Assembly: GCA_964255285.1 (NCBI GenBank)
Contig: CAXUUL010000095.1
Span: forward strand, 1-33,163
Direction: 5' to 3'
Source of the DNA: Ionaspis alba
Lineage: Eukaryota
Length of the DNA stretch: 33,163 bases
Shown here: positions 10,530-32,073 of the stretch, in pieces
Numbering within the stretch: the stretch's first letter is position 1
How the letters are laid out: every line of letters starts with the position of its first letter
Notes under the pieces: model-generated
What the model saw: the letters and a program-made list of their open reading frames with translations, nothing else
Databases searched by the model: none
Told to the model about the DNA's origin: nothing
Position numbers and translations under genes: made by a program

Positions 10530-12298
10530 ATGGATTTATTGCACACGAAAGGCCTCGCACAAGTCGAGCAACTTCTTCAACCGAGCTTACCTAAGCAAAT
10601 CGTCGTTGCCCTTGGGCTCGGTGTGAGTATCACGTGCCCCGTATGCGATGTTCTTGCTGCATCTCACATCCTCCAGTACCTCGTCTACAGACTCATTGTT
10701 GCTGTGTCCAACCACATCCACCATCCCCTATACAAGTTTCCCGGTCCGCCAATCGCAGCATGGAGCAATGCTCTCCATTCGTTTTACTTTCTCAGCGGCC
10801 GCCAACCCTACAAAATCCTTGCGCTGCATATGAAATACGGACCTATTGTACGTACCGCGCCCAATGAATTGTCGTTTACCAGCGTCGGTAGCTGGAAAGA
10901 CATCTATGGCTTTCGTCAAGGGCACTTGCCATTCATCAAAAGCGAGTTTTATGATGGCGGCTCCTTTGCCGATCAAGCACATAGCATTGTGAGCGAACGA
11001 GATCCAACGGTGCATGCAAGGATGAGGAAATATCTGAGCCATGCTTTCAGCGACCGGAGTTTGAAAGAGCAGGAAGATCTTGTTGCCGAGGTTGTGGATT
11101 TGTTCATTCAACAGATTGGCATGCATGGGAACTGTGACGAGGGAACAGATATGGTGATGTGGTTCAATCTGACCACGTTTGATATCATTGGGAGTTTGGC
11201 ATTTGGAGAGACTTTTGGGGGCTTAGAATCTGGTATATCTGCCTTGAAGATCTGCTTTCTATTATTCGCAGGACCCTTATTAATCCGAATGCAGGCAAAT
11301 TTCACTTTTGGATTGGTCTTGTCACCGCTGCTCTTCGCCAGGGCGCTCTGGCCGACTTCTTCAATCGCTTTCCGTTGTTCCGAAAAGTGTTCCTCACGAT
11401 AATGCCGCAAGCAATGGATCGACTGATTCAAGATACGCGGGCCCACGAAGCCCATACTATGAAGCTTGTGGAAAAGTAAGTCGTTGCTTCATCATTTGAG
11501 CGACAACCTCCTCCTAACTAATTGTCGGCAACAGACGCATATCCAAACCTAGTGCTCGTGGCGACTTTCTAACCCGCGTACTCGAGAACCGCGACGCCGA
11601 TCAAATCTCGGACGTGCAAATCGCCGCCCACGCATCCGACTTTGTGACGGCCGGCAGCGAAACGACAGCCACCTGTCTATCATGCATAACATACTACCTC
11701 GTTCGCGACGCTTCCATCATGTCGAAACTGCAAACCGAGATCCGCACAGCCTTCTCCTCCTACGACCAGATCGACGCCACCTCCACCATCCCCCTCAAGT
11801 ACCTGCATGCCGTCGCCCTCGAGGGAATGAGAATCTACGCACCTCTCCCTTTCGCCCTACCCCGTGTCGTGCCTGAAGGCGGCGACACCGTGGAGGGGCA
11901 CTTTCTTCCTGCAGGGGTGGGACCACTCCTCGCCCTCATGTCCTTCCATCCTTATGCTAATGCGGGCGATCTCCTAGACCATTGTCTCCACCAACCCTGT
12001 CGCCGCCTCCCTCTCCCCGGCCAACTTCTCGCGCCCACTCGTCTTCGACCCCGAGCGTTGGCTCGGTCTCAACGAGAAGGATCTTTTGGCCGCCGCGCAG
12101 CCTTTCTCACTGGGGCCGAGGGGCTGTCTGGGCCGGAGTTTGGCGTGGATCGAGCTGCGCACAATTCTGGCTAAACTGTTTTGGACATACGACTTGCAGT
12201 TGCTGGATCCCGGGCTGGATTGGCATCGGGACAGCAGGATGCAGACCCTTTGGAAAAAGCCTGTGTTGAGGACTAAGGTCACTCCGAGGGTGGGCTGA
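10530..12298 (+). CDS. Cytochrome P450 (Tri11/CYP65-like), 5 exons
   Basis: N-terminal anchor, HPLYKFPGP, PNELSF...SWKDIYG, TFDIIGSLAFGE, I-helix AGSETT, K-helix EGMR, FDPERW, heme motif FSLGPRGCLG. First intron 10623-10676 is in-frame. Stop TGA at 12296-12298. Confidence 0.92.
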
Positions 12299-12529
12299 AG
12301 GGATCGACGAGTTCGAATCGGGTGGGATTGGAATAAGATTGCCACGTGTTGTGGACATGTTGCGGTTATAGAAATTCATTGTTGATAGACGCCTCCTCTA
12401 CGAGTACCATGATCCAATTCTATATTTATTACAATCATTCAAGCGAATTAGAAACAATGGAATTAATGTGTGGGCGACCACTTTGCATTGTATCTTTCTA
12501 GAGATGCAAATAGAGATCTTCGAAAACGT

Positions 12530-13714
12530 TTAAGCCTCCCCGAATTTACTGCCTGTTAACTTTTCGCTCAACTTCCATAGCCGATCGGCACTAGCAGGGT
12601 CCGTGGCATAACTGACGGGCAATTAGTTATGTTTTGAACAAGTGCGGAAAGGTTCGTATACTCTGGTAGATCATCTTGAGCAACACAATCACGGACGCAA
12701 GCACCAGACTGCTTGGTCAGCGTAGGGTCCAAAGCGGCCACGAGAATCGAAGCACAGCCTTGCTGTAAAGATTTGCCGGACTCGGACTGAAATGGTTTCC
12801 CTTGAACAGCTTCTTAGATCAATTAAATCAAAGAAAAGCGTGATTGGCCATACCCAGGACTTTCTCGCGTTCTTGAGTCAGCTTCCATGCTGCACCAAAT
12901 GACGCCGAATCGGCGTGTCTTGTGAGATTGGTCGGAAGGACTGTATTCCTATGAGCAAGATGACGAGGTACGGGGGATCAGGTGATAGCTATATACCACC
13001 AGGATGAGCAGCAAACGCAGAGATGCCGTAGTCCTTGAACCTTTGCGTGAGGCCAACTCCGAAGAGAACGTTTGCGGTTTTGGATTGCCCGTAGCCTTTC
13101 CACGGATGATAGGCCTTGCCGTCCTCAAAATTCCAATCGTCGAACCTGACTTCGGAGAGGGTGTACGCTGTACTTGTGACACTCACCACTCTCCCTTGAC
13201 CTCCGACTCTTAACAGATCCATCAGTAGACCCGTGAGCAGGAAGTGTCCCACATGGTTGGTCCCGAACTGTGCCTCGATACCTTCCTTCGTTTTCTGCAT
13301 CTCAGGCAGCGCCATGATGGCGGCATTGTTGATCAAGACATCCAATTTCTTCGTATGTTCATGGATCTCCGTTGACGCTGCCTTGATCGATGCTTGATCC
13401 GCGAGATCTAACTTCACAAACTGTACTTTGGTTTTAGGAGATGATCTTGCGATCTCGGCGATGACGGATTCAATTTTGCTGAGGTCACGTCCGAGGAGGA
13501 AGAGCTGCCTGGGTTTTCCCGCGGCGAGAGAGAGCGCGATTTCGGCGCCCAGCCCGCCGGAACTGGGACCAGTAATAGCGACTAGTCGGGGGGAACTGAG
13601 CTAGAGGCAAAGCCGAGCTGGTGGACGGAAGGACTCACTTGATTTTCCAAATACCTGCTCCGCGAAAGTGGCCACAACTTCTCTTCCTGTGGTTGAGAAG
13701 GAAAATCGGACCAT
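12530..13714 (-). CDS. Short-chain dehydrogenase/reductase (retinol-DH/WWOX-like, Prx1-like), 5 exons
   Basis: MVRFSFSTTGREVV start, TGPSSGGLG Rossmann motif, LINNAAIMA, FGTNHVGHFLLT, catalytic YGQSK, HPG, C-terminal ADRLWKLSEKL. Stop TAA at 12532-12530. Confidence 0.9.
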
Positions 13715-13916
13715 GTTTACGAGGTCGAAATGTTCAAGTGAAGGGTAGTCTTGAGGCGAACTGAGTGTATTTCGAGCTCGAGCTTCGCGTATGAGACGGC
13801 AGGACTGGTTCACTGGATCAACAAAACCTGGAAGCACGAAGGAGATTAGAGGGAAGAGGAAGATGACTGCTGTGATCTCTGATGTTCGGATGTGCATAGA
13901 TGACGATGACAACAGT

Positions 13917-13928
13917 CGGAATGTTCGA
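13917..13928. promoter_or_regulatory. Candidate Zn2Cys6 site CGGAATGTTCGA in the divergent SDR/P450 promoter
   Basis: Variant of the CGG-N6-CCG motif seen at 20776 and 22655. About 200 and 235 bp upstream of the two divergent ATGs. Confidence 0.25.
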
Positions 13929-14163
13929 ATTTGACAGTTGTGGGTTTGCCCGGGTGGACCCTTTAATGTCGAAAACACAATGCTGTGTACGATCAGTCAT
14001 CCGGGCTCACCCTTTTGGGAAAGCTCTTGGAACAAGATAATGTAGGTACATGCTCCCGGTTTTCGTGTCTATCTATCCTTTGCACTCTCGAAACTTATTT
14101 TACCGGTTGCTTTCCCTACGGTGGTGGCGTCTATCAATATTGCGTGAAGCCTAAGACTTTATC

Positions 14164-16126
14164 ATGCTTCCTCTTTCATTGCTCATCCCGATTCTTCTCA
14201 GCTGTTATCTTGCCTACAAGCTTTTCTGCCTGCGCAGGAATGTGCATCTTGCAAAGGCTACTGGCCTTCCTTATACCTACAGTCCACATCTAGAGTTCGA
14301 AACGATCGCTTATATCACTACCCCGATCTTGCGTTACGTCTTTGCTCGACATCTGTTGAAAGGAAACGGATGGCCAAAATGGGCTCGGTTCATGATCAAA
14401 GATTGGCCCTACGAGGACAAGTTCCGGGCACATCAAGAGTTTGGTGAAGTGTTCCTGGTGGCAGCACCAAATGGGTTGATATGCTATAGTGCAGATTCAA
14501 CCATGGCCATGGATGTCTGTACAAGACGGAAGGAGTTCACGAAGCCTAGGGTAAGTTCTGCCTGTCGTTCTTTTTCTCGGAGAGAAGTTAATCAACAATG
14601 CAGGACAAATATCGTGTGTTCTGACCTTCATTGACCCATGAGAGAAGAGAGGCTGATGTTCAAACACAGAAATGATCGAACCTTTCGGACCCAATGTTGT
14701 CACAAGCGAAGGAGATCTCTGGCGATTTCACGTCCGCGTTACTGCTCCGCCTTTTGGAGAATCGAACAATCACTTAGTCTGGAATGAAACTTTCCGACAA
14801 CTTGAGTTTCTCACGTCGTCCTGGTCGAAAAGTGGATCTGGTGATCTCAAGAACGATATCTACCTACTCACCCTTAACATCATCGTGGCTGCAGGCTTCG
14901 GTCAGCAACTAGATTGGACGGAAGACAGTAAAACGATTCCGAAAGGACACAACATGGGCTTTCTCGCGTCCGTTACAGGCACCGTCACTTATATTGTCCA
15001 TATCCTACTAATGCCCAAATGGTTGCTGAGGCGTTCGCCGTGGAAAAAGGGCTATGAATCGCACGCCGAGTTCGAAAAGTATATGAGGGAACTAATCACT
15101 GCAGATAAGGAAAAGGTCTCACGAGATGTCGAATATGAAGGCGGTCAGAAGGGGAATCTTCTGACTGCTGTGCTCAAAGCGTCCGCGGAAGAAGCGAAGA
15201 AGAATGGGCAGGCGAAGTCGAGGAAGACCTCTTTCGATGATGATGAAGTCCTGGGGAATGCTTTCATGTTCCTATTAGCCGGTAGGTCACCTTCAATATT
15301 GCGCAGATTTTCCAATTGAGACGGTGTTTTTAGGATACGATACAACTGCGAATTCAATTATTTACGGTGCCATAACTTTGGCTCTCTACGACAAGATACA
15401 AGATCAGATGGTAGAAGAGGTCGATCGTATCTACAAAGAGGCAGAGCAAGAAGGACGAACCGAGCTTGACTACGTGGAAGATTACCCCAAGTTTCGATAT
15501 GTGGTTGCATTTATGGTGTGTGCGCTCTTGACTTTTGACTTGTGGCCCAGTGTGCTGACTAGATGTCGTAGTACGAGATCCTGCGAGTCTTCCCCATCGT
15601 TGTACACATGACAAAGATGGTCCTCCAAGAGCAACGCATCGTGACACAGCACGACACGGTAAGCAACAACAACAATGCTTCGGGCAATCTCCTTCCCAAG
15701 GACTGTCGAGTCTACCTAAGCAGTACGGGCACCCACTACAACGAGCGCCACTGGAAGCACCCCCACGTGATCGAGCCCTCCCGTTGGATGAGCGAGTCCC
15801 CCAATCTTTGGGATCCCACCCTTCCCGCGACCCAAAATCCCCCGATTCTCGACTCGGCTGCGCGCATCCCGTCTCACACGAAAGGCACCTTCCTCACATT
15901 CTCCGAAGGTGCGCGAGCGTGCCTGGGCCGCAAATTTGCCCTGGTGGAATATGTGGCGTTCTTTGCGGGCATCCTCCGTAAGTACAGGTTTCAGCTGGGG
16001 GCGAATGAGGACCCGGCGAAGGTGGAGCGTGTCTTGAGGCTCCGGTGTGCAGGCGCAATCACTTTGGCTCCGGCGGAAGATGTGAAGCTATTTCTGGTGC
16101 CTCGTAGCAGGCCATCTTGTTCATAG
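14164..16126 (+). CDS. Cytochrome P450 with a 10-nt micro-exon (14604-14613)
   Basis: Signal anchor MLPLSLLIPILLSCYLAY, KPR|DKYQ|MIEPFGPNVVTSEGDLW, I-helix FLLAGYDTTA, EILR, EPSRW, heme motif FSEGARACLG. Stop at 16126. Confidence 0.92.
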
Positions 16127-16836
16127 GAGTTCTCTGAGATAAGACTCAAATGACCACTTTCACTCGAACTTAGGGCCATGGGATAATAAATAATAAGCGA
16201 GACTAGACTATCCCAGCCTGCCAAGAACTCAATGCCAAACCATCGGGCAATATCGATATGTGATCCCGCTCAGCATGTTCAGTAATCCTCTGCCGATGGT
16301 TGACCTGAACGGTGATGCCGGGCATCAACCTCAAGCAGCCTGTTTCCGCATCTCAAAAGGGGAATGACGCGGGGAGCGGCATGAGCCTAAACAGGAAAAG
16401 CCGCATCGCAGGCGATCGTCTCCGGTCCCTGCATTCCTTAGTGGGGCCAGCCGCATGGCAGGGCAGCACGAGGCAAGGGGTGATGCAGGGACGATGATGA
16501 GGCAACGCGCGTGGGGGGATGTTAGGCGGGATGTCGGGTAGGGATTCCGCCCGGAACGACAGCTTGTAGACATGATCGTCAGGAAATATGGGGATTTCAC
16601 AGATATGTCAGCAGCAAGTTTGTGCAACCTTCTGTCAGGAGAAGGCTCATGCCCATCCTATTATGGCAATCACTTCAGACCCTGGATTCGTCATCAGACA
16701 AGGTGTACCTCTTCCACGTCTCTTTCCAACTTAAGACTTTCACTGCCCTCTGACTCTAAGATTGTGCATCTGCCGAATAACAGCACATTCTTCTACGAAC
16801 AATCCGATACCGTCTTCATCAAACAAATAGCCTACA

Positions 16837-18013
16837 ATGTCCTCCCTCACTAGTACTACTACCGGTGGAGAAGTTGTCAAGTATTTCTCTTCCGAGATCA
16901 AGGGCAAGACATGTACGCCTCTACCCTCTACTAACTAACCCGACTGAGTTCTTTCCACTAATTCACCAAAACCAGTCGTCATAACAGGTACCTCAGAAGG
17001 TGGACTCGGAGCCCAGACTGCACTCTCCCTCGCCCATGCTCAACCTGCCGAAATCCTCCTCCTAGGTCGCACTGAGTCCAAAGTTCAGCCCGTGATCTCC
17101 CAACTCGCCGAGATCAGCCCCTCCATCAAGACATGCTTTATTCCCATTGATCTCGCAGACCTGTCGTCAGTTCGCGCCGCGGCCAAATCGATCAACAGCA
17201 AAGTCTCCAAGATCGATGTTTTGATCAATAATGCGGGCATTATGGCCGTCAAAGAGTACACCAAGACCAAGGACGGCTTCGAAAGCCAGTTCGGGGCTAA
17301 TCATATTGGGCACTTTCTATTGACCAATCTCTTGGTCGAGAAGATTGCCAATGGCGGCCGGATCATCAATCTTACCAGCATGGGATACGAGTCCGAGGAG
17401 ATACGTTTTGACGATTACAACTTCCAGGTAAGTTAGAGATTCCCTCTCAGAGAATCACCACCGTGGAGCTTTGGTCTGACAAAAGGACTCGCAGGACGGC
17501 AAAACCTACAACCCTTGGCTTGCGTATGGACAGTCCAAAACCGCCAACATCCTCTTTGGCGTGGCTCTGACCAAGAAGCTCAAGAGCAAATCCATCAGCG
17601 CTTTTGCTGTGCACCCAGGTCGTAAGTTGGAATCCGCATACCCTCCTGATCCTCTTTCCGCATGGCCCGCGCGGTCCAAACACAATACTAACCGTCCATC
17701 GGCTACAGTCATTCTCGGCACCAACCTCCTCGCAAACGTGACCCCAGACATGTTCGCCGACGGGTTCAAAGTTGCGACGGAGAAAAACGACGGGAAACCG
17801 GTCGAGATGGAAGCAGGCAAGACGCTCGAAGCAGGCTGTTCCACCACCTTGGTTGCCGCTTTGGACCCTGCGATCGTGGACAAGTCCGGCGGTCTGCTGA
17901 CTGATTGCGGCATCACGAAGAAGCCGGTCAAGGCATATGCGCAGGATCCGGAGAAGGCGGATAGGTTGTGGGAACTTAGCGAGAAGTTGGTTGGGCAGAC
18001 CTTTAACTACTAA
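16837..18013 (+). CDS. Short-chain dehydrogenase/reductase (retinol-DH/WWOX-like, Prx1-like), 4 exons
   Basis: MSSLTSTTTGGEVVKYFSSEIKGKT start, ITGTSEGGLG, LINNAGIMA, FGANHIGHFLLT, YGQSK, HPG, ADRLWELSEKLVGQTFNY*. Confidence 0.9.
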
Positions 18014-18749
18014 GGAATTGGTCCGAGTTAGGTGGCGCCGAGAGTGATTGGCGAGCAGTGAGAATCTCTGATCAACTACATAGTACTCGTCACAGTTGGT
18101 GCTGTGTTTGTGACTGCTGTAAGCGAGAAAATATATCACGTGATTCCTTCTTGCCTTACTTCTTGCCTAACACGCTGAAGATCTACAATCACACACACTG
18201 GATTTTAAGGGGGTGGACACTTGGATGATCATCCTATGAACCACCAAGAGGCCACCACACTAGGCTTGGTTGTCAGTTCCCAAAAAAAAAACCCCCAATT
18301 CCGTCAACGCGGTTGGCAAGTGGCTATCTTGCAAGCAGTGTACCTGGATGGTGGTGGTACGCCAGAAACTAACCACTAGTTGACTAGGAAAGCAATCAGT
18401 CTATTTGACCTTGATCATATCATATGCCAAACTCGTGAACAACTGCCAATCTTTTCATTAGTACGAGATGAGAAATACACAATGCTTTCTTTTTCTCATC
18501 ATAATGTGAGGAGTCTACACAGTCTGAAGTCTTTTTCTATATTTCCCTAGAACGTCGTATCACCACTAACCTATCCTTCGTCACCTGTAGCACATCCAGC
18601 CGCCTCTTCGCATATACCAAAGAAACCCACCATATTTTCCACCTCCGCAATAGTCCCAGGAAGGAGCTGCCTCTACCACCTCAACTTCACAGTCAATACT
18701 ATCCTCCCCACACTGCCTCCAAAACGCTACAGATCCATCCGAGTCTGAC

Positions 18750-20625
18750 TCATTTCCTTCGTTTAAAACACACCTTAGCCTCATGGTCCGGCAGATACTG
18801 CGTCTCAAACAAGCGGCTAGCCGGTCTCTCCTTCGTTCCGTCCGGGAACTTCATATCATACTGCGTCAAAAGATGGACCATGATAGCCTTGATCTCATTT
18901 GCGGCAAAGAAGCGACCCGGACAAGCGTGGCGGCCGTATCCAAAGGACATGCTCGCCGGATTGGAGGACGAGTACTGCGCTTTCCCCGCTGCGGCAGTTT
19001 GCTCAGGGGACGGCTTGGCGGAGGTGGGCGAGGTCCGGCCGTCGCGGATCTTGGCAAAGCGGAACCCTTGGAATGTGTCGGGGGAGGGATAGAGGCTTGG
19101 ATCCATGGAGATGGCTTGGGTTGGTATGCCGATGGTCGTGTTGGCGGGGATGACGAAGCCGTCGCTAAGCTTGTAATCGCAAGTGACGACGCGCTCGAAG
19201 GTAACTATTAATTAGTGAAAGGTGTCAGTGGGTCGATCCTGGAGGTATTGCTCGGATGAAAATGCTCCCTTGGAGGGGGGAGGGATGTTATACTTAGTAG
19301 TAAGGGATTGAAGCGCTGGCTCTCTTTCATAATGCTGTCCAGCTTCGTCAACTTCACAAACGCAGACTTCTGTACCTGCTCATCCTTGCCCATCACCGAC
19401 GCGATTTCTTCCCGCAGCGGCGCAATGTATTCAGGCCGAGCGCAGAGGTCGAAAATCAATTGACTCGGCGCCGCCGCGCTGGTGTGGATTGCTGCAAAGC
19501 TGACTTTCAACAAGATGCCAGCAATGAATTTCTTGTCCTGTTCGGACCCTTTGGCATGATCGCTCATCCAGGAAAGTAGGTCTAACGCTTTCTCTCCGTC
19601 CCGTTCCCGCTGTTCGAGCAGAGGGATTGCGGCTTTTTCGGCAGCCGCATAGTGCTTTTTGATGTTCCGGATTGCGGGGATGAAGTGCTTCGCGACTGGC
19701 CGAAGAATGTGGGGATACTGCTTGATAGTCTGAGCCCCGATGAAGCCGTCAATGGCAAAAGCGATGGACGCATCCACCCATTCTTGATTGCGGCTGAGCA
19801 CTGTTCCGCCGAACATGCGGCTAGATACGCGGGCCACAATTTGCGTCAGAACGTGTACAACGTTGATCTCTGTCCAATCGTCGCAGGGAGGGAAGGTGGC
19901 TGCGAAAGCATCACGGATTTCTTCTTGGACGGCGGGCATTACGTCAAGGAGGTGCTGGTTTAGCTGAGCCTTGACAACACGCGGATGCAGAGTAGATCTG
20001 CTTCCCATCGTAGTGTATTTGCCCTCGAACATCTGCGCCGCATTAGATTCGACTAGACCTCCGCTTTGAGGACCTGAGTGGGACAGACCTCGATGAAAGT
20101 GGCAACAAAATCCACCTTGTCGATCGGTGCTGATTTGAGATCTTCGAGATATTTGACAGGAAGCATCAGGCGCTCTCCCAGGCGACTGGGCACGTAGAAC
20201 GGAGTTCCACCATTCTATTTGAAACACTCAGCCACGGAAGATAGATGGAGGTCAAAGAACTGAATCATTGCCTTCTGATATCCTTCCAAGAGCATGTCCT
20301 TTCCATCATGAACAAACCTCTTTCGGTTCTTCAAGACATTTGCTTCATCATCGCCACCAACAACAGGAATACCAGGAACAAGCCGCTGCCTTTTCTTAGG
20401 CGTCCCAAAGAGGACAAACAAAATAAGAACGAACGAGAAAGCCAGGACGATTTTTCCTCGGCCACGAGAAAGTTCTTCTCCATATTCAAAAAGCTTCAAC
20501 AACGTCGGAGGTCTCACGGTCAAAATCTTCGATGAACCGTCTTCCAATATGCTGCCTTTGGCGGTAAGGCTGGCAACAGCGAGAAGGATGAGCGGAATAC
20601 GAGCCACTCCGAGATGGTACTCCAT
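18750..20625 (-). CDS. Cytochrome P450 (ent-kaurene oxidase-like, CYP503/CYP512/CYP68 clan); needs a GC-AG intron at 20271-20215
   Basis: Hydrophobic N-terminus, IPVVGG, IVARVSSRMFGG, I-helix FAAIHTS, DSIMKESQR, FQGFRF, heme motif FGYGRHACPGRFFA. Ends FKRRK*. Confidence 0.92.
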
Positions 20626-20775
20626 GGTAAGGTTATAGTGTGATACCAAAGTGGTCGGAATTGGATTCGGTGCATTTTGCCCTGACCGTGCGAGTAAATG
20701 TATATATGTATATTGCCCGGTCTTGTGTGCTGCGGAACTTCTTGTTCAAGTAAAGCCCTGCAGTAATGGTTGACA

Positions 20776-21363: not shown

Positions 21364-22509
21364 TCAAACCCCAGTCGCACTGTTGTAGCGGGGAGTAGTC
21401 TGGCTCCATCGCTCGTTCCCGCTCATCTGATATTTTAAGCCTTCCATGTACTGCGCAGTAGCAACGCTACAGCCCTCCTCACTCGCCATGCGTGCGGCGC
21501 AGAGCTCGTCGTGCACGAGCTCCCACTCGCGGATCATATTCCAAAGTACTCGTTTGGTGGCTGCCACGTTGAGATTGGTTTCGTCCCCTAGGACCTGGAC
21601 CGCCGAGCAGAGCGCCGCTCCCTCACTATGGCCCATTTGGGAAGCGAGGAGTTCTTTTTCCCAGCTGTAAACGTCGTTGACGACGGAGATGTGCTTGCTA
21701 CAGTTCTCTTCGATGGCTCTCGTGCTCGCTAGTTCCGCCGTGCTGAGATTGAGACCCATGCTGAAGCGCATCAGCGCCGAGAGCAAGGCTTTGCCCACAT
21801 CTTTTTCGCGGTAGGTAAGATACTCGCCCAGCGCGCCGATTGTCAGCCGCGAACGGTCAGTCTGCGCACGCATGAAGGTAAAGGTGGGCTCCAGGACCTC
21901 GTCCGCAAGTGCTTTGTCGTGTGCTCGCATGGATTCCCAGAGATCATAAATTATGTATTCCGCTGGGACCGAGCGATCTGGGAGCATGTGGCCGCGAGAA
22001 ATGGGTATGAGACGTTCATTGTAGGCTTCACCTTCGGTGAATGACATGTCTTCCAGCACATCTGAAGTCATACATTATTAGCATTATGAGCTTTTTTGGA
22101 TTGGAAATAGAAGAAGCGAACCATCAATGAGAAAAAGGACTGTGAGAAGCCTGCAGGCAAAATGGATACGGTCACCCTGTGCCTTGGGAAAGTAATAGCA
22201 GGTCACTTTGGAGAATCCAGCGGCGAGAAACTTCTTCCTAGCGTTACCATTGGGGAATGGCCAATGATCAAGGAAGTAACTGTCGACTTCTCTGGAGATT
22301 TCCTGCTCAAGAGGATGGCAGAGCGGTTGCCAACGGGATTGAGGAAGACTCCATTTCACTGGAGCTGAAAAGGTTGGAACTGTTCCAAACCCGTGAACTG
22401 ATTCTTTGGTCAACTCAGTACGTCATTGCCCGATAAATGTAGCGCTATTACCTGGCTTTGATGAAAGGTGAAAGCTGCTCGGAAGGCTTGATTCAACGAC
22501 GGCAGCCAT
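21364..22509 (-). CDS. ari1: Aristolochene synthase-like sesquiterpene cyclase (Ari1/Prx2 family), 3 exons
   Basis: LCHP...EVDSYFLDHWPFP, KVTCYYFP, RIHFACRLLTVLFLID|DVLE (Asp-rich motif split by intron 22121-22062), GEAYNERLIPISRG, YDLWESMRAHD, FMRAQTD, YREKDVGKALLSALMRFSMGL, NSE motif NDVYSWEKE, YQMSGNERWSQTTPRY. These segments closely match Penicillium roqueforti aristolochene synthase as I recall it. Confidence 0.93.
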
Positions 22510-22654
22510 GGCTTCGATGTGAAACAAATATAACAACAGAGTAGATCTTATTTGGAAGACCTCGTTAGTAATTAAGTTGGCTCTTTGATCCACCGATGAC
22601 TGATAAAGATGAATAAAAGTGGTCGAGGAAGCAAGCTAATAACGCCATTCAAAG

Positions 22655-22666
22655 CGGAACACTCCA
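22655..22666. promoter_or_regulatory. Candidate Zn2Cys6 site CGGAACACTCCA (reverse complement TGGAGTGTTCCG)
   Basis: About 146 bp upstream of the cyclase ATG. Near-identical to 20776-20787. Confidence 0.3.
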
Positions 22667-22702
22667 GTACGGGATCCATCACGACGGACAGGCTCCCAAA
22701 CC

Positions 22703-22912
22703 CTAGGCCCGGATATCTGTGACTGCTAGATTTGGCGGCACATGATGTACGGCTCGANNNNNNNNNNNNNNNNNNNNNNNNNNNNNNNNNNNNNNNNNNN
22801 NNNNNNNNNNNNNNNNNNNNNNNNNNNNNNNNNNNNNNNNNNNNNNNNNNNNNNNNNCTAGGCCCGGATATCTGTGACTGCTAGATTTGGCGGCACATGA
22901 TGTACGGCTCGA
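22703..22912. repeat. 55-bp direct duplication flanking a 100-N scaffold gap (assembly artefact)
   Basis: 22703-22757 is identical to 22858-22912; Ns at 22758-22857. Confidence 0.9.
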
Positions 22913-23668
22913 ATAGAGGAACCTCCAGAAGTGGCTCCGGTGGACGGTAAGAATTACCATAGCCTTCGATGTGAATCAGTGACGCCATTCTCCCGTGTAC
23001 GCCGCCCATGTCATGAATACCGTCAGCCATAGCCTGCGGGTCTCAGAAGGCCAATCCTATCGATCACCGGCACATGTGAGAAACACTGGCAAAATCCCAT
23101 AGCCGGAGACGAGAACCAGTATTATAATTAGGGCGTTATGACACGAAGGAAGCGGAGCAGCACCTACATCCAGCATGGATGTGTGGTCTGGAAGAGTGGT
23201 AAGATGACTCTGTGGTAGCATCCGAAAAAAATCTCGATGATGATCTGTCATCCGTCGCGTAGAGCGATGATTATCAAAACCGAAAATTACAGCGGCTATC
23301 TCCCCTTCCGGCATGTCCGGATCTCGGCCGCTCGGTTAGGGCTCGTAATATTACGACTATGTTCTTTAGGGTTTCCGGCATGCTTCATCGCTGCCTCGAC
23401 ACGTGTAGGTACCAATCCCTGATCCACCCCTGCTGATCGGAGAATTATGAGCAGAGGAGGTATTTCCGCCGATGAGCCAGCCATCTCTAGATACTAAGCT
23501 CAGGCAAAAAAGCCCCCAAAGACGGCAGAGAGCATAGTGGAATTATACAAAAGGGAAGTCTTATAAGACCATGAGACCACCGTCCAGTTATTTCTTTCCT
23601 CTCATTTCAGCTGTTTTCCTGCTGCGTATATTTCTCTCTTGATCAAACAATTTGTTTTTCTTGTCACC

Positions 23669-25375
23669 ATGTTCAATACACTGTCGTTGTTGTACATATC
23701 CTCGGCAGCTGTATGGATCGCTTGTGCCTCCCCACTCACTCAGATGCAGACGCGGACGATCCAGGGCTGCAGCAAACTTGCGTCAACCTATCCCAAGCTG
23801 ACCTTTCAAGCAGATTCACCGGTTTACACCAATGAATCCACTCGTATGCGCACTCTGCGTCTTCCTGCAATCATGCTTCCTTGCTAACGAGTCCCTGCGT
23901 TCAGGTTTTTGGTCCGAGACTGCCCTTTTGACTCCATCATGCGTCTTTACCCCATACTCCGCCGAAGATGTTGCCGGTGCTGTTAAGATCCTAGTCGCGA
24001 CGGGCACCCAATTCGCCGTCCGAAGTGGTGGGCATATGCCAATCGCGGGCGCTGCATCCATCGACAAGGGTGTTTTGATTGGTATGACCAATCTCAACAC
24101 ACTCAGTCTCGTGGACGATAAGAAGGTTGCCCAGATTGGCCCTGGCCAAACCTGGGGAGTAGTATATGATTGGATTTCAGCATATGGTCTGGGGGTCGTG
24201 GGTGGGCGATATGGACCTGTTGGCGTTTCCGGTTTGCTCTTGGGTGGTGGTATCAATTTCTTTGGCTCACGTAGGGGATGGTCGATGAACAGCGTGGTCA
24301 ACTACCAAGTTGTTCTGGCAAATCATTCCATTGTGAATGTAAATGCTACGTCATTGCCTGATCTCTTCTGGGCAATCAAGGGAGGGGCCAATAACTTCGG
24401 CATTGTCACTCGTTTCGACTGCCAAACTTTCCCGGTCACTAACGTTTACGGTGGGCTCGTCGCCTATGACACTCCTTCTATGCCAAAATATGTTGAAGCG
24501 ATCGCAAACTTCGTTGCTCCAGGCGGCGGGTCTGAGGATCCGGATGCCGCCATTATTCCCTCAATCGCGATCACTCCCGCCACAAAATCTGTAACTGGGC
24601 TGGCAGTTGTCTTCCATCATGGTGCAGATCCAAATCCAAAGAGTTTGCAGGACTTTACAAGCATTCCTGCAGTCAGCGGCAAGCTCGAAGAACTGTCGAG
24701 CTTCTCCTCTTTTACCGATGAGACCAATATTGCCGCTTTCGGTAACCGCAGCTCTCGGTATAGTTTCCCCATCGGAAAGAAACATTGAATTACATGTTTT
24801 AACCATATTTACTAGGGAACTGTTCTGGGTGACTTCCGTCAAATCCAACCCGCAGTCGATAAAGCTACTCAACGACACCTTGGTTTCTATGGCATTGTCG
24901 GGCGAGCTGAGTCACGTTCCCGGCCTATCATTGGGAATGTCGATCCAACCCGTTACCACAGCCTGGCTCACAGCGGCAAAGAAATCGGGAGGTGATGCCA
25001 TTGACTTAGACCCTGCAAATGGCCCTTTCCTCTCTGCTCTAATTTATTCGCAGTGGGATAATGTCGCAGATGATGAAATGGTCGTCAATTTCTCCAAGAA
25101 AACTACCGCTGCTATAGACACGAAGTCTAAAGCTGCAGGTCTTTTCTATCCGTTCATCTACCTGAACGATGCCGGTGGAACTGGGGGTTACGAAAATGTG
25201 TTCCAATACTACGGTGGTGGAAAGAGTTTACCAAAGATGAGGAAAATCGCCCAAAAATATGGTAGGTGCTCGTGATGCTCAATACCGGATCTCAGGAACT
25301 GATATTCAAGCAGATCCGAACGCCGTTTTTCAGAATCTGCTGCCTGGAGGCTTTAAGATTGGGTTGGGTCACTAA
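23669..25375 (+). CDS. Secreted-type FAD-linked oxidase (VAO/berberine-bridge-like, Prx3-like), 4 exons
   Basis: Signal peptide MFNTLSLLYISSAAVWIACA, PSCVFTP, FAVRSGGH (covalent-FAD His), VGVSGLLLGGG, DLFWAIKGGANNFGIVTRF, YLNDA, KYDPNAVFQNLLPGGFKI. Stop TAA at 25373-25375. Confidence 0.92.
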
Positions 25376-25856
25376 CCTGTCAAAACCTTCTCCTACTCAG
25401 CTTTCCACCTTTCTTGGTGATTGGTGCAGGGCCCACATTCATTTCCAATTTCTTACCGACTTCTTGAATGCATATCTTATAGACTTTTTTTTTATACACA
25501 TGCGTTGCTCAGGCACAAGTTTAGTTTCACCATAGATTATTGATAAATCGCCACACCTTGTCATAAGCTTTCTCCTCAAAAGATTGACCTTGACGTTTGA
25601 ATCTAGTGATGCCTGAAACCCTTGAATTCCTCTCTAATTTGGGAGACTCCGAGACCAAATGGAGTAATCTCCGGCTCCGTCCCATCTCTGTACGTTCGAA
25701 ACCAGACGCGCATATTTCTATATGCAAGGCCAATCTTCAATCTCTTTGTGCTACACTTCCCATAGTCTCTTGCTTTTTCGAGTCCGCTATCCTCACGTGG
25801 ACAAACACATACAACACCGCACCCTATCCATATTTCCATCCGCTGTATTCAACGAA

Positions 25857-26939
25857 ATGACAGACCTCCAGATCACGGACGCTGACATTCCCCTTCTTGA
25901 GGGCAAAATAGCGATAGTCACCGGTAAACCCTTTGCCCTCCACCAATTCCCCACTCTAACAACCCACCCATCAGGTGGAAGTTCCGGCATCGGCCTCGCC
26001 ACCACCATCCTCCTCGCCACCAAACGCTGTCGAGTCTTCATCCTCGACCTCAAACCCCCTTCTCCTGACACTCCTCTTCCCCCCAACTGCACCTTCGTCC
26101 GCACAGATGTAACCCGCTGGGGGGACCTAGTCAGCGCCTTTCAAGCCGCGGGGGAAGTCGACATCGCGATCGCGAACGCCGGCATCAGCGAAACAACAAA
26201 CACCTTCGGGCCGGCACCAACCCCTCTGCCAGCCGGCGTCGCGCTGCCCGAGCCCAGCTACCCCGTTCTGGACATCAACCTGCGCGCCGTGCTTAACGTC
26301 GTCAAGCTCGCGCTGCACTACTTCCGGACGCAAGGCCCGCGGCGTGCTGGCAGCATTGTCATCACGGCGTCCGCGACGGCGTACGCGCCCGAGCAGTCGC
26401 TGCCCGTGTACTCGGCCGCGAAGCTGGCGCTCATCGGGCTCGTGCGCAGCTTGCGGGCGAGTTTGTGGAAAGAGAATATCAGCATCAATGCTGTCGCTCC
26501 GGCGGCGACAATGACGGAGCTGCTGCCGCGGGAGCTGGCGGCGCCGTTGATGGCGGCGGGGCTGCCGGTCAGTACGGCGGCTTTTGTGGGGAGAGCGATT
26601 GTGTGGAGTGCGGTTGGGCGGCAGGAGAGGATGGTAGAGGCTTATGGGAAGGATGAGGTGGGTGAGGTGGAGAGAGCGGGGAGGTGGAATGGGAGGGTTG
26701 TGGTTACCTTGGGGGAGAGGTATACGGAGGTTGAGGAGGCTATTGCAGGGCTCAGGGAGAAGTGGTTTGGTGCGGAGAATGCGAGGTTGACAAGGTCGCA
26801 GCAAGCGGCGACGGATTTTAGGGGAAAGGGGTTGCTGAATGAGGAGGTGAAGGGAATGGGGAATGGGTATGGGAAGATGCCTAATGGAGGAGATAAGAAG
26901 CTGGCTTATGGTGGAGTGCATGCCACGAATGGTATATAG
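25857..26939 (+). CDS. Classical short-chain dehydrogenase/reductase (Prx4-like), one in-frame intron
   Basis: MTDLQITDADIPLLEGKIAIVTG|GSSGIG, IANAGI, INL, catalytic YSAAK, INAVAP. Intron GTAAAC...TCAG at about 25924-25974. Confidence 0.9.
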   Translation: MTDLQITDADIPLLEGKIAIVTGKPFALHQFPTLTTHPSGGSSGIGLATTILLATKRCRVFILDLKPPSPDTPLPPNCTFVRTDVTRWGDLVSAFQAAGEVDIAIANAGISETTNTFGPAPTPLPAGVALPEPSYPVLDINLRAVLNVVKLALHYFRTQGPRRAGSIVITASATAYAPEQSLPVYSAAKLALIGLVRSLRASLWKENISINAVAPAATMTELLPRELAAPLMAAGLPVSTAAFVGRAIVWSAVGRQERMVEAYGKDEVGEVERAGRWNGRVVVTLGERYTEVEEAIAGLREKWFGAENARLTRSQQAATDFRGKGLLNEEVKGMGNGYGKMPNGGDKKLAYGGVHATNGI

Positions 26940-27263
26940 AGTCTCTATGAGGATTCAGTTTTACCACTTCATCTCATCTGAATTCTGGCTGGAGTGGAGA
27001 CGCAAACTCTCATCAGGCTGATCGCTGACGTTCATTCAACGAGGTCATGGCTGAAAGCTGTAGTACATACTGTCAAGGCCCGTGCGAAAGAGAGGCTCAT
27101 TGATTCTATCATCTAACCTTTGGAAGCTAGGTACGCGGCACAGGAGTATCGTGTATTGTGTTGAATTTGAAAAGAAAGTTGCACGGTCGAAGCATCCAAG
27201 GTTCCAAAATGCACGACGTGCATTTCGACGCCAAGATATGTATCAAACAAAACCCGTCACAAC

Positions 27264-29255
27264 CTAGCGTTTTTCCAACCTGTCCATCATCCTAGTGAAT
27301 AACTTGGGTTTCCACCACATAACATGCATGTGACTTTTGCCTTCCCAGTCAATGTTCTTGTCAANNNNNNNNNNNNNNNNNNNNNNNNNNNNNNNNNNNN
27401 NNNNNNNNNNNNNNNNNNNNNNNNNNNNNNNNNNNNNNNNNNNNNNNNNNNNNNNNNNNNNNNNTTCCACCACATAACATGCATGTGACTTTTGCCTTCC
27501 CAGTCAATGTTCTTGTCAACGAGATCGAGATCGTACCTGTACAGCATTTTAGCGAGAATAAGCGACATTTCGATGTAGGCGAAGTTCTGTCCCAGGCACC
27601 CCCGCGGCCCGAGCGAGAACGGTTGGCTGGCTTCTTTGTTGTCCTTGCACTCGGGGTCCAGCCAGCGATTCGGCTTGAAGAGAAACGGGTCATGGAAATT
27701 GGCCGCGTCGTGCGTCACCGTCCACGCGGAAGTGTAGACTTCGGCACCAGCGGGGATATACACACCGTCGATGAGGCTACCGGGACTGATGCGTGGGAAG
27801 CCCTGAGATCCGGGTGGGTAGATGCGGAGGCCTTCGGAAATGACGGATTGGAGGTACGGGAGTTGTTGCGTCGCGGCGGCGGTGATATTGCTGGAGGAAG
27901 AGAAGGCTCCGCGGATCTCGGCGCAAAGTGTTGAATAGGTAGCAGGAGTCGTGAGCAGGTAATATGTTACGGCTGCGAGAAAGGTGGAGACAGTTTCGCC
28001 GCCAGCAATGCTGCAAGCGATCAATATCGTATCGCAATAAAAGTATGGATGGAAGAGATGACGGGTAAGTGGCAGATTACGGAGGCGTGGACGACATACA
28101 TAAGGGTAGAAGAATGAGCTGTGAGTTCTTCTTTGGATACCTCACCAGAATCAACTTTCTCAACGATATTGGTGAGGAAGTCCTTCCGATCTGCCTTGGA
28201 CTTGAGCCGCCTATTCGAGTCAGCTGCCGCTTGTAAAGGCAGAGAGGAATGTTAAGAATGCTCACTTCTCCACCTGTTGTTTGCTGAAGCCACTGTGCTT
28301 GTTCCGGACCGCAACGGTCCAGCGAGGAAGGATGAACTTCCCAAGCGTGACGAGAAGGGGATACCGGCGGAGGTTGTCGACCAAGGTAATGAAAAACAGA
28401 TGCTCAAGAATCAGAGCCGGCCAAAAATGCGGCTCCGCCTTCTCCACACAATGGAATGATTCACCAAAGGCCATTTCGCCTAGGATGTCAAAGGAAACCA
28501 TTTCATACCACTCCGTCATGTCGAGACCTCTTTCCCCTTTGCCAAGAACACCGATCTTTTCGACGAATTCGTCGACGCACTTCTGTACTATGTCCTCCTG
28601 CTCTTTCAAAGCCTTGCTGGAGAAGGAACGTGAGAGGAGTTTTCTCATACGGCCATGGATCTTAGGATTCCGCTCGGAGCCAATGCACAAAGTGTCGTAG
28701 CCTGAACCATATATTTCGTAGAACTCGGATTTGACGAAAGTTGGTTTGCCAGAGGTAGCGTGGCCATAGATGTCTTTCCAGCTTGAAGCCGACGCAAAGG
28801 AGAGCTCATTTGGAGAGATGCGAACGATTGGACCATGTCGTTGGTGCTGCTGATCGATCGAAACATGGAAACGACCACTCATGGAATGACCAATTCGCCA
28901 TAGCTACGAGGATTTAGCTTTAAGCCTCGGCTGTACGGGATATATCTCGAAAGGATGTCTGTCTAGGTGTAGAGAGCAAACACAGAGATCGGAATACCAA
29001 AGAGCTCCTGGCTAGTAACGGTCCCGGAAACTTTGCAAGTGGATGAAGGCATAGGTTATAGATCGTGGAACCAGCTACGTATACTAATGCCTTTGACAAA
29101 GTCAGTACAAGTCAGAAGAGAGGAGGCCGGGGTGAAGCCTTAGAGATTGCACATATTATTGGCTCCTCAAAACTTACCAAGGCAACGGCAAATGTAGCAA
29201 TGATGAATTTCCAGCTCAATGTCGTGAACAGCTGCACACCCTGCAATAACGGCAT
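27264..29255 (-). CDS. Cytochrome P450 (Tri11/CYP65-like); 3' end interrupted only by an artefactual gap
   Basis: Anchor MPLLQGVQLFTTLSWKFIIATFAVAL, HPLAKFPGP, PNELSF...SWKDIYG, I-helix IIAGGETV, EGLR, FKPNRW, heme motif FSLGPRGCLG. Collapsing the 55-bp duplication gives ...HVMWWKPKLFTRMMDRLEKR*. Confidence 0.9.
27310..27519. repeat. 55-bp direct duplication flanking a 100-N scaffold gap (assembly artefact)
   Basis: 27310-27364 is identical to 27465-27519; Ns at 27365-27464. Confidence 0.9.
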
Positions 29256-29691
29256 TTTGATTAAAGCCTTGGAAAAAGCCGGAAAATATGATTTCGATCC
29301 ACGCCTCCCATGATTAGCCGTTACTTATATCGGCACACCATATCACTGCCATGCCTTCCAAAAGCTCCGATGGTACGGAGCCGGAGGAAGGGTCGGGACT
29401 GTTGAGGCCACGCCTCTCATATCAGGATCAACACGGTCAGTCCGGAACGAGTAATATTTCGGAGAGGAAGGTGACGGTTTATTGCCTTGGCCGTACCTGA
29501 GCCAAAGGAGGGGCGTGCTTTTGCTGTTCTCCCATTCGAGTTTTCGATTCCGCAGATTACAAATACTGGCCGTATTGCGCTGCGAAGACCAGGTAGGCGA
29601 GCGTGTTGAGGATTAAAGCACTACTTTTGGGCGCATGCCTGGGTTGCCCTGCATTGTCCTGACGCGTTGGCATCTACCAGGACTTTCTTGT

Positions 29692-29791
29692 NNNNNNNNN
29701 NNNNNNNNNNNNNNNNNNNNNNNNNNNNNNNNNNNNNNNNNNNNNNNNNNNNNNNNNNNNNNNNNNNNNNNNNNNNNNNNNNNNNNNNNNN
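29692..29791. other. 100-N scaffold gap in the divergent P450/TF intergenic region
   Basis: Run of 100 Ns with no duplicated flanks. Confidence 0.95.
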
Positions 29792-30825
29792 TAAAGCGGG
29801 CCGGTCCAGGGGCTACATACATTGGTGGCCGCTGCGGTTGTAGCAGGGGCCAAGCCATCATTCTCCTGCTGTCAGCACACCCACCCGTTGGATCTAGCAC
29901 GTGGTAGCCAATCGTTCCCGACACGGGAGGCACCGCCCCCACGCTGCGGCTCTTCAAGGGATGAGATTGAACTTTCCCTCTCCTGCCAGGGATCGACTTG
30001 TCCATCCTTCATAAGCTCCTCCCTCATGGAGGAGAAAGAGCTTCCGATCAGTGGATCTGGCATCCGACCCGAGGCTTCGAGCTCATTATGGGGTGTCAAC
30101 CACACTACCAAACGAACAGGCATGAACGATTATCACGAATGAGCATGATTTCGATAATCTCATACCTGGAAATCGAGGGACAGTCGGCCAAGAGTCTGAT
30201 TGAAATGTCCGCCCCTCTACCTTTGAAGCCTTAATCTTGTAGATCTATTGATCGAATCGTCTGACCAGCATCTGTCATGTCTGATCGGCTCACCGCAACG
30301 GAATCCGGCTATATCGGTCGATTGAGGTGTTTGCTCCTTATAAGAAGCGCGATCGAGGCTCTACGGACTGTGGTATCGCTGCAGTCAGCGATCCTTCGAA
30401 AACTATGGCCACTGTGCAGGGAGAACTCTTGCATAGCTGATAAACCACTTATGAGGCTCCAGCCTGACTTGTGATAGAGCCCTAGTGGACCGTCAGCAGA
30501 TAAGGCGAATACGTTTGCCCCTCGAATTCTTGATGTCGTCGACTATTCCAGGGATGCTCAGGATCGGATCAGCGTTATCAGTCTGAAGATCTACCCGAGG
30601 CCATACGAATCCCTTTCAATCTTTTCTACGGATGCTCCACTGTTGAATGCAAAGATCCTGTAGGGTTACAACACTAAAATCACGGCTGATTCTGGCGTAT
30701 GCTGGCAATACTTAGGGTGGTAATCTATTTTCTTCAGTCTTGATATCCTTGGTGCAGAGCGTTTCAATGTCCACCCTTATCTACCACATTCATATACTCT
30801 CTCTTCACATCATCACAACATCACC

Positions 30826-32073
30826 ATGTTTGCGACTCTTCGCTGTAGCAAGACGGTAAGTGACCAGGACTCTATGTCGATCGAGCATACCTCTCATCCG
30901 GGACTGCCAGGCCATGGTCAACAACACGTGGCATGTACCACCTGTCGGGTTAAGAAGGTACGTGGATGGTGGTCCAGGTACTCCGTACATTCGAGATTGA
31001 TTTTGCTGCTTAGGCAAAATGTACCGGCGACAAGCCTGCCTGTGACCGTTGCAAATCCAAAGGCATCGAATGCGTTTTTGTGGAACCAGTGCACACGGGG
31101 CACTCGAGACGTCGNNNNNNNNNNNNNNNNNNNNNNNNNNNNNNNNNNNNNNNNNNNNNNNNNNNNNNNNNNNNNNNNNNNNNNNNNNNNNNNNNNNNNN
31201 NNNNNNNNNNNNNNGGGATCGCGCCTTCCGACATATCTTCGCATTTGTCGCTACACGAAAGGTTTTATTCTCATGACTCGAACCTCAGTCTTAACAATTC
31301 CCAGGCAGTGGACCTTTTAGATTTTGATGGAGACAGCATTACAGGCCCACGTATGTCCCTACCCCTAATCCAGTCATCTCGTTCAATCATGTTAACAGTT
31401 CATCCTAGTAGCGGCCGATCTCAACGATCCCTTCCCCATGTTCGATTCGGAGACATTCAATACCCCAAGGACAGACTCCTCCCAGTCGCTCACAATGCCA
31501 TCAACATCGTCGCAGACCTGCCGCTGTATGCAGACCGCGCTGGGCGTGCTCGAGAACCTGGAAGTCACCAACACTACAGATAACAATCTCTACACCTACG
31601 ACCACACGCTCTTCTTCCAAAAGCGTGCCGTGACGGAGTGTTGCACAATGCTCAAATGCAAAGACTGCAACGCCAGCTCGGCTTTCATCATGCTACTCGT
31701 CATCATCTGCGAAAAAATGATGTTCATGTTTGAGCGACTACTCCAAGGGGTGCGTCAGCCATCGGAGCAGCAGCAAAATGCCCAATCATCATTGTCTCCT
31801 ACTCTGGTTACGTCCAAGCCTGGCGAAAGCCCTATCCCTGGAGGCGGACCGGGCATATCACTAGGAGTGTATAAAGTCGATTTGGCCGAAGAGCGATGCA
31901 GTCTGATTCGGGTCCTCATTCTTTTTCAGATAAAGAATCTAGAAGGTTTATTGACGCAATTGATTAGCATTGCGACCATGTGGAATTGGACGTCGCAGAT
32001 GTCAAATTTACAAACTCTCACAAAGCGCTCTAGAGATATAGCTTCACTTGTTAGAGTAATCAACTCAGGCTAG
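30826..32073 (+). CDS. Zn(II)2Cys6 cluster transcription factor with an AflR-like C-terminal domain; contains a 100-N gap (31115-31214)
   Basis: Splicing 30958-31013 gives ACTTCRVKKAKCTGDKPACDRCKSKGIEC (Cx2Cx6Cx6Cx2Cx6C). The C-terminal CRCMQTALGVLENL...CCTMLKCKDC...MLLVIICEKM is typical of pathway-specific regulators. Confidence 0.88.

Follow-up and report, generated by a model that had tools for sequence, protein, structure and literature searches.

We examined a scaffold from Ionaspis alba (contig CAXUUL010000095.1), whose entire 33,163 bp are referred to here as the window, and found that it carries a ten-gene fungal eremophilane cluster in which no gene for acyl transfer is present. A Pfam scan covering all 180 stop-to-stop open reading frames (ORFs) of at least 70 aa in the window placed cytochrome P450 (p450) matches at four separate loci (10503-12295 and 14657-16123 on the plus strand, 18753-20227 and 27290-28903 on the minus strand) and matches of short-chain dehydrogenases/reductases (SDRs; adh_short) at three (12992-13600, minus; 16948-17433 and 25668-26936, plus). 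A cyclase (Terpene_syn_C_2, 21367-22074, minus), a flavin adenine dinucleotide (FAD)-linked oxidase (FAD_binding_4, 23802-24785, plus) and a Zn2Cys6 regulator (Zn_clus and AflR, 31014-32070, plus) complete the set, which is the inventory that an earlier note, made from the sequence of this DNA, had counted. All four P450s retain the haem cysteine motif. The Transferase/AATase, polyketide synthase (PKS), MFS/ABC and 2OG-Fe(II) families matched none of the 180 ORFs, and tblastn with three acyltransferase queries reached a best E of 0.74 in the window while recovering the positive controls, the metagenome loci L013 and L001; the earlier statement that acyltransferase, PKS and transporter are all missing is therefore borne out. 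To the left of the cluster lie genes for a caleosin, a ubiquitin-conjugating enzyme and a chitin synthase, and to the right a Snf7 gene (Table 1). An Atlas search with the chitin synthase exon placed the organism no more narrowly than in Ascomycota.

Table 1. Genes and assembly features of the window, with strand and the evidence for each
Feature	Coordinates	Strand	Basis
Chitin synthase, left housekeeping flank	3632..6850	-	Pfam Chitin_synth_1 E 3.4e-64
P450-1, paralogue of ORF9/Emp9 family, distinct clade	10530..12298	+	Pfam p450 on 3 ORFs; haem motif 12104
SDR-1, classical SDR, low coordinate approximate	12460..13714	-	Pfam adh_short E 7.8e-25; rough model
P450-2, ORF6/Emp6 family, start 14050 or ~14202	14050..16126	+	Pfam p450; haem motif 15899
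SDR-2, paralogue of SDR-1, start approximate	16837..18013	+	Pfam adh_short E 4.6e-23; second exon 17486-18013
P450-3, adjoins cyclase	18750..20675	-	Pfam p450; haem motif 18944
Aristolochene-synthase homologue (Emp2/Ari1-like), 332 aa, 3 exons	21364..22509	-	Structure matches, motifs
Artefactual N-run	22758..22857		Identical 55-bp flanks; run X1 contig skips 155 bases
FAD-linked oxidase, BBE/VAO-type (Emp3/prx3/HrL4-like), both ends approximate	23669..25275	+	Pfam FAD_binding_4 E 2.5e-20
SDR-3, Emp4-like	25857..26939	+	Pfam adh_short E 4.6e-25
P450-4, ORF9/Emp9 clade, spans artefactual N-run	27264..29255	-	Pfam p450 E 5.5e-43; tblastn exon cores
Artefactual N-run within P450-4	27365..27464		Identical 55-bp flanks; run X1 contig skips 155 bases
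N-run between P450-4 and regulator	29692..29791		Run X1 contig bridges; 17 letters between sides
AflR-like Zn2Cys6 regulator, contains unbridged N-run	30874..32073	+	Pfam Zn_clus and AflR
N-run inside regulator gene, between zinc cluster and AflR-like domain	31115..31214		Unbridged; loose ends of 30 and 43 letters
Snf7-family (ESCRT-III) gene, right housekeeping flank	32261..32795	-	Pfam Snf7 on 2 ORFs

The gene models are approximate. Greedy spliced models of P450-1, of the middle of P450-4 and of the 3' end of SDR-1 read through introns, and for the two P450s tblastn exon cores were used in their place. For comparison, metagenome contigs were scanned with the cyclase exon, which yielded 28 loci, ten of them at least 7 kb long; these were typed by tblastn with the window exons and by Pfam on 82 of their ORFs.

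Within the limits of the scaffold, the cluster is complete. The window holds four runs of 100 N each, of which two (22758-22857 and 27365-27464) are assembly artefacts, since each is flanked by identical 55-bp stretches and, in contigs of run X1, the sequence continues across them with 155 bases fewer. The earlier note, which by implication had treated these two as artefacts, counted two true gaps of unknown size. This stands for 31115-31214, which no X1 contig crosses, but not for 29692-29791, where bridging leaves 17 letters. As X1 contigs bridge three of the four runs and the fourth lies inside the regulator gene, no gap is able to hide a gene, and the idea of an acyltransferase concealed in one was rejected. 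This upholds the view that the cluster is effectively complete within the scaffold. When seven intergenic stretches of the window were compared by tblastx with the 28 loci, nothing was found at E 1e-4, and hence no conserved coding signal. The X1 contigs also show single-base indels and substitutions at about half of the summed depth (~66 of 130), in 29477-29809 and at other places, a pattern suggesting that the source data contain two haplotypes or strains; these may be the reason why the scaffold breaks at these points. In run X2 of the same study the contigs are short, with depths of 1-4, and 32 of the 42 that could be placed are at least 99% identical to the window, indicating that this run too contains the organism, or one nearly identical to it, in small amounts.

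The earlier assignment to aristolochene and eremophilane biosynthesis was borne out by the match of the cyclase and by the typing of the P450s and SDRs. The large exon of the cyclase matches the solved aristolochene synthase of Penicillium roqueforti (1DGP/1DI1) at E 3.8e-102, the cyclase matches that of Aspergillus terreus at E 6.4e-93, and over 230 aa it shares 58-59% identity with A. flavus proteins that bear the name aristolochene synthase. Its metal-binding motifs read LIDDVLED and VVNDVYSWEKE, and so contain the class I motifs (DDVLE and NDVYSWEKE) by which the Emp2 of an EMP cluster is recognised. Similarly diverged enzymes, IsaA (PMC13647387) and HrTc (PMC10686045), are described as yielding aristolochene, and by this resemblance aristolochene is the probable product of the cyclase here as well.

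P450-4 and SDR-3 accompany the cyclase as the conserved core. With the C-terminal exon of P450-4, 298 relatives were found at E <= 0.001 among 1060 candidates, and six of the best 120 of these are named 'orf9' or 'orf9b'. P450-4 is 63% identical to P0215, the UniProt 'Cytochrome P450 monooxygenase ORF9' of P. roqueforti FM164, and in an 85-row tree it shares a 100* clade, which counts 50 rows, with ORF9, A. flavus AFLA_007466, Cordyceps militaris EGX94777 and Xylaria hypoxylon, which makes it an Emp9-type P450 by shared clade with ORF9 and AFLA_007466. The rows nearest to it come from the lichen-forming fungi Caloplaca and Letrouitia; lichen-forming fungi provide the nearest relatives of P450-4 and, along with other fungi, those of P450-2. 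P0186 and P0192 were considered as two A. flavus paralogues and rejected as such, because they represent a single locus in this tree. In SDR-3 we read a 51-nt intron (25924-25974) from the sequence, whose splicing restores IVTGGSSGIG, and the enzyme shares 45-56% identity with the SDR portions of database models that are fused to Emp9-type P450s (P0121, P0235). SDR-3 and P450-4 stand tail to tail, much as HrL7 and HrL8 of Hypoxylon rickii are neighbours by their numbering. In the mapping presented in PMC13736955, Emp2, Emp9 and Emp4 form a conserved path to 7-epi-neopetasone that is common to almost all fungal eremophilane clusters, and IsaC and IsaB are described as performing the C8 hydroxylation and the dehydrogenation, respectively (PMC13647387). 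P450-4 is accordingly the predicted C8 hydroxylase of aristolochene, and SDR-3, judged by its sequence, a putative Emp4-type C8 alcohol dehydrogenase.

For P450-2, only 29 of 2057 candidates qualified as relatives at E <= 0.001; the best of them share 54-55% identity with it and come mostly from metagenome-assembled genomes of lichen fungi. It is 39-53% identical, by exon, to P0297, whose 90% cluster of 37 members contains P. roqueforti ORF6 (CDM31319.1) and P. chrysogenum prx9. A 32-row tree groups it at 99* with L006, Elsinoe, Circinaria, Elasticomyces and A. nanangensis, 11 rows in all, and separates it from the clade of PR-toxin ORF6, so that its likeness to the Emp6 of group A holds at family level only. 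Prt6 is described as an enzyme of C1 hydroxylation and C1,2 desaturation (PMC13736955). An acyltransferase stands directly upstream of the Emp6-like gene in Circinaria (P0276), A. nanangensis (P0283) and L013, and the gene models of the first two join it to the Emp6-like P450 as one protein; in the window, this position is taken instead by SDR-1 and a promoter region. The window has neither the PF02458 acetyltransferase Emp8 of group A nor a recognisable gene of the ORF7 type (Emp7, a 186-aa isomerase), the latter judged with no ORF7 reference sequence in the comparison. The 90% clusters of PR-toxin ORF9 and ORF6 (P0215 and P0297) hold proteins of Penicillium, Dendryphion nanum, Stachybotrys chartarum and Monosporascus, and that of ORF6 additionally those of Drepanopeziza brunnea and Ustulina deusta; genes so alike across fungal lineages indicate horizontal transfer of the PR-toxin cluster.

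The third P450, which adjoins the cyclase, has 515 relatives at E <= 0.001 among 3691 candidates, and its best non-self matches, a JGI protein and Xylaria curta proteins, are 75-76% identical. A. flavus KAF7623741 belongs to its family, as does C. militaris EGX94783, six genes from EGX94777; the A. flavus gene is situated between those of KAF7623740 (Emp9 clade) and KAF7623744 (aristolochene synthase). Among the best 120 of the 515 relatives many come from X. curta, Hypoxylon, Colletotrichum and Macrophomina, and none from P. roqueforti, P. chrysogenum, Dendryphion or Stachybotrys, the carriers of PR-toxin genes. For the clusters of the former fungi, PMC13736955 describes Emp13 as a key enzyme. 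This taxon pattern, together with the A. flavus gene neighbourhood, points to the Emp13 family of C6,7-desaturases/epoxidases. In a 67-row tree, P450-3 does not join a tight 100* clade whose 11 rows include nine from Hypoxylaceae and which would represent the Emp13D aromatases; in group D, 12 of 14 members have more than 75% identity to HrL1.

P450-1 and the FAD oxidase form what may be a side-chain module. The exon cores of P450-1 (approximately 10530-11250, 11303-11476, 11530-11920 and 11978-12298, by tblastn) are 38-53% identical to P450-4 at the exon level, and in the 85-row tree P450-1 falls in a separate 100* clade of 14 rows, apart from the Emp9 clade, with part of a fused Monosporascus model, Ustulina, Hypomontagnella and P450s of L006, L008, L010, L013, L019 and L028. 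Among 1.84 billion representatives, 155 proteins matched P450-1 at E <= 1e-30, the best match being a 171-aa fragment of 83% identity. Members of this clade are found near aristolochene-synthase homologues in six of the ten metagenome loci of at least 7 kb, and in L006 and L010 they directly adjoin the FAD oxidase. The FAD oxidase of the window has a signal-peptide-like N-terminus, and among solved structures it is related to FAD-linked oxidases, for example EncM and 6-hydroxy-D-nicotine oxidase (E ~1e-24). In H. rickii, the P450 HrL3 and the FAD enzyme HrL4 are reported to produce a side-chain acid (PMC10686045), and by analogy P450-1 is a candidate side-chain (C12/C13) oxidase of the HrL3/Emp11 type. 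At L008 (7370-10826), a gene of the P450-1 type is alone beside the cyclase homologue, with no other gene of the window set within 10 kb on either side, and may constitute with it a minimal two-gene cluster; the same pair occurs on the short contig L019 (6-2965).

The two remaining SDRs are paralogues, with 51% identity over 158 aa, and the best solved relative of SDR-1 is 3RD5 (E 3.4e-26). The region 10530-18013 can thus be described as two pairs of a P450 and an SDR (P450-1 with SDR-1, P450-2 with SDR-2), in which the SDRs are alike and the P450s come from different families. The zinc cluster of the regulator is split by an intron, a layout shared by the regulators that stand beside the cyclase in L006 and L010.

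The set of the window is found again on the metagenome contig L006. Its genes are P450-3-like, FAD oxidase, P450-1-like, SDR-1-like, cyclase, Zn2Cys6 regulator, aldo-keto reductase, P450-2-like, SDR-3-like and P450-4-like, and no acyltransferase occurs within the 20.7 kb examined. L006 therefore shares with the window all four P450 types, the FAD oxidase, SDR-1-like and SDR-3-like genes, the cyclase and the regulator with a split zinc cluster; it differs in gene order, in sequence (the best aligned segments are ~36-65% identical) and in that an aldo-keto reductase replaces the second gene of the SDR-1 type. L013 has genes like P450-1, P450-2 and P450-3, a FAD oxidase, two SDR types and an extra P450, and its acyltransferase upstream of the P450-2-like gene is a PF02458 protein of 471 aa. 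Across the ten long loci, P450-1-like genes and the FAD oxidase are each present in six, P450-4-like genes in four, P450-3-like genes (at least 46% identity) in three and P450-2-like genes in two, while an acyltransferase was found in two of all 28 loci, L013 and the short L001. For several fungi, the public annotations fuse adjacent genes of such clusters (P0121, P0125, P0136, P0182, P0235, P0276, P0283) and thereby expose gene neighbourhoods; one Monosporascus model merges three P450s with an SDR, and others merge an acyltransferase with a P450. Outside the cluster, the 3.6-kb stretch between the chitin synthase and P450-1 (6900-10530) has no Pfam match. It contains an ORF on the plus strand (9039-9527) with several cysteines and a Pro/Thr-rich N-terminal part, for which no family was recognised (best Atlas score 0.81).

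The sequence itself shows which genes are present, the families and clades to which they belong, the lack of acyl-transfer genes and the nearly complete state of the scaffold; from these assignments we infer all of the chemical steps and the product. The AflR-like regulator would turn the cluster on, and the cyclase would convert farnesyl diphosphate to aristolochene, which P450-4 would hydroxylate at C8 and SDR-3 dehydrogenate to give 7-epi-neopetasone. P450-3, as a member of the Emp13 family, would bring about C6-C7 desaturation or epoxidation, and P450-2, as a member of the Emp6 family, an oxidation of ring A within C1-C3. P450-1 and the Emp3-like FAD oxidase would take the isopropenyl side chain to the alcohol and on to an aldehyde or acid, and SDR-1 and SDR-2 may carry out keto or enone reductions. 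The end product would be a mixed A/B-type eremophilane oxidised at ring A, C6-C7, C8 and the side chain, near phomenone, phomadecalin and xylarenone, and it is predicted to be free because neither an acyltransferase nor a PKS is present. With no acyl-transfer genes in the scaffold, the free, multiply oxidised eremophilane that the earlier note had proposed is a reasonable product class, and the compound is possibly an undescribed one. We consider it likely, on the whole, that these ten genes form a cluster making a non-acylated, multiply oxidised eremophilane.

Several points weigh against this interpretation. The regiochemistry of P450s is not readable from sequence, as PMC13736955 itself states. 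The labels of P450-1 and P450-3 rest on gene neighbourhood and taxon pattern rather than on a comparison with the sequences of Aoy13, Aoy15, HrL1, HrL3, Prt5 or Prt11, and P450-3 was placed at the base of its family tree without a resolved position. Furthermore, in L013 and in the fused Monosporascus model it is a gene of the P450-1 type, not of the P450-4 type, that adjoins the Emp4-like SDR, so the P450-1 clade may have another role, and its assignment is less certain than the others. No Emp15-type C3 hydroxylase was recognisable among the four P450s of the window, again with no Emp15 reference sequence in the comparison. The approximate nature of the gene models concerns most of all the 3' end of SDR-1 and the 5' part of P450-3. 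Finally, the search covered the scaffold, and an unlinked acyltransferase, transporter or Emp7-like gene may lie elsewhere in the genome.

The classification of fungal eremophilane clusters, worked out in papers from 2023-2026, provides the frame in which the alternatives can be weighed. In PMC13736955, 371 such clusters are mapped and 215 classified, and a few P450s define groups A (Emp6/7/8), B (Emp13/15), C, BC, D and X, with Emp6C, PKS and C-P450 typical of groups C and BC, the Emp13D aromatase of group D, and Emp13 with X-aKG of group X. No PKS domain or HXXXD acyltransferase (Transferase) match of the kind that marks groups C and BC occurs among the 180 ORFs, nor is there a 2OG-FeII_Oxy match as in group X, although the identical scan detects one in L020. 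The window could be a PR-toxin-type cluster of group A from which Emp8 and Emp7 were lost or moved elsewhere, so that eremofortin-like deacetyl compounds, or acetylated ones made with an unlinked enzyme, would result. The family of P450-2, the acyltransferase directly upstream of the Emp6-like gene in P0276, P0283 and L013, and the order of cyclase, FAD oxidase, SDR and P450, which resembles ORF2 to ORF5 of P. roqueforti as given in Table 3 of PMC10144355, all speak for such an origin. We nevertheless find it unlikely, as the scaffold holds no acyltransferase and has no gap that could conceal one, P450-2 lies outside the clade of PR-toxin ORF6, P450-3 has no P. roqueforti or P. chrysogenum protein among the best 120 of its 515 relatives, and L006 shows the same set over 20.7 kb with no acyltransferase.

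It is very improbable that the cluster is instead of the hypoxylan type (group D), with P450-3 an aromatase and an aromatised nor-eremophilane, its side chain oxidised or reduced, as product: the gene set does parallel, by inference, the H. rickii cluster described in PMC10686045, but P450-3 falls outside the 100* clade in which most rows are from Hypoxylaceae (a clade whose own Emp13D identity is presumed), and the hypoxylan cluster lacks an Emp6-like P450. Nor do we think it probable that the cluster is silent or decaying and has no end product. Silence does have a precedent in the jan cluster, reported to be silent until its regulator was overexpressed (PMC12335561). A silent or decaying cluster is, however, hard to reconcile with ten genes that all have long open exons and need no in-frame stops in their exon cores, with haem motifs in four of four P450s, with both metal motifs in the cyclase and with a cofactor motif in SDR-3 that is correct after splicing.

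A non-acylated eremophilane cluster thus remains the reading that we prefer. The window fits none of the six named groups exactly, and it is built wholly of known parts. More tentatively, and with considerable doubt, it could represent an unnamed eremophilane group that combines Emp6-type A-ring, Emp13-type C6,7 and side-chain aldehyde/acid oxidation with no acyl transfer, makes an undescribed free scaffold and belongs to a lineage without a characterised eremophilane pathway, L006 being its second member. Provided that it is expressed, the cluster would extend the eremophilane framework by a further enzyme combination, with Emp6-family and Emp13-family P450s and neither PKS nor acyltransferase, and would contribute two paralogous SDRs yet to be characterised, as well as a P450 clade found repeatedly beside aristolochene synthases. 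This could be of use to natural-product chemists for combinatorial biosynthesis, without opening a new question; even the predicted chemistry was already anticipated in PMC13736955, where an Emp6-like enzyme is invoked for the phomadecalins within type B.

When all ten genes are set against characterised clusters, several of which were compared by description only, none matches one to one. The PR-toxin cluster of P. roqueforti and P. chrysogenum (ORF1-11, prx) shares with the window the aristolochene synthase, the ORF9-clade and ORF6-family P450s, the FAD oxidase, SDRs and a regulator, as well as a total of four P450s and the local order of cyclase, FAD oxidase, SDR and P450. It has the acetyltransferase ORF8, which the window lacks, whereas the window has a third SDR; and no P. 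roqueforti counterpart of P450-3 or P450-1 is seen among the relatives listed. The hypoxylan A cluster of H. rickii (hrTc-hrL8), as far as it is described in PMC10686045, likewise has a cyclase with an adjoining P450, a side-chain P450 with a FAD dehydrogenase, an extra SDR and a regulator, its common P450 and SDR are adjacent as in the window, and that description mentions no acyltransferase. Beyond these genes, the window has a P450 of the Emp6 family and one more extra SDR, and its P450-3 is outside the presumed aromatase clade; the correspondence between the two is drawn from neighbourhood rather than from the sequences.

The sporogen AO-1/deoxyphomenone clusters (A. oryzae, A. flavus, Hansfordia pulvinata, Isaria felina) share the cyclase, the Emp9-clade P450 and an SDR with the window. 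The A. flavus locus of this type has a P450 of the P450-3 family, and the genes given for A. oryzae and H. pulvinata include none for acyl transfer, both as in the window. With three P450s and one SDR, these clusters are smaller, and they carry an MFS or ABC transporter, which the window lacks, while they are without the FAD oxidase and the Emp6-like P450 that the window has. The peribysin (pma) cluster of Periconia macrospinosa, in the account of PMC13736955, has the Emp2/9/4 core, Emp13 and Emp11 P450s and three reductases in total, and its products are free oxidised eremophilanes. Unlike the window, it is described there with no mention of an Emp6-like P450 or a FAD oxidase. The two extra reductases of the window recall those of this cluster, in which PmaA and PmaB might be the counterparts of SDR-1 and SDR-2. 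The jan cluster of P. janthinellum (phomenone B, farfugin A), as described in PMC12335561, shares the cyclase, the C8 P450 and SDR, a FAD enzyme and a zinc-finger regulator, and its C13-oxidising and C6,7-epoxidising P450s, with no acyl-transfer gene in that description, agree with our reading of the window; against its three P450s and one SDR, a comparison made by description only, the window adds the Emp6-family P450 and two SDRs. Characterised clusters that do without an acyl-transfer step therefore include those of sporogen AO-1 and jan, and, as described, hypoxylan A and peribysin. Next to them, the window is a new combination within an already classified eremophilane family, and L006 shows that this combination is not unique.

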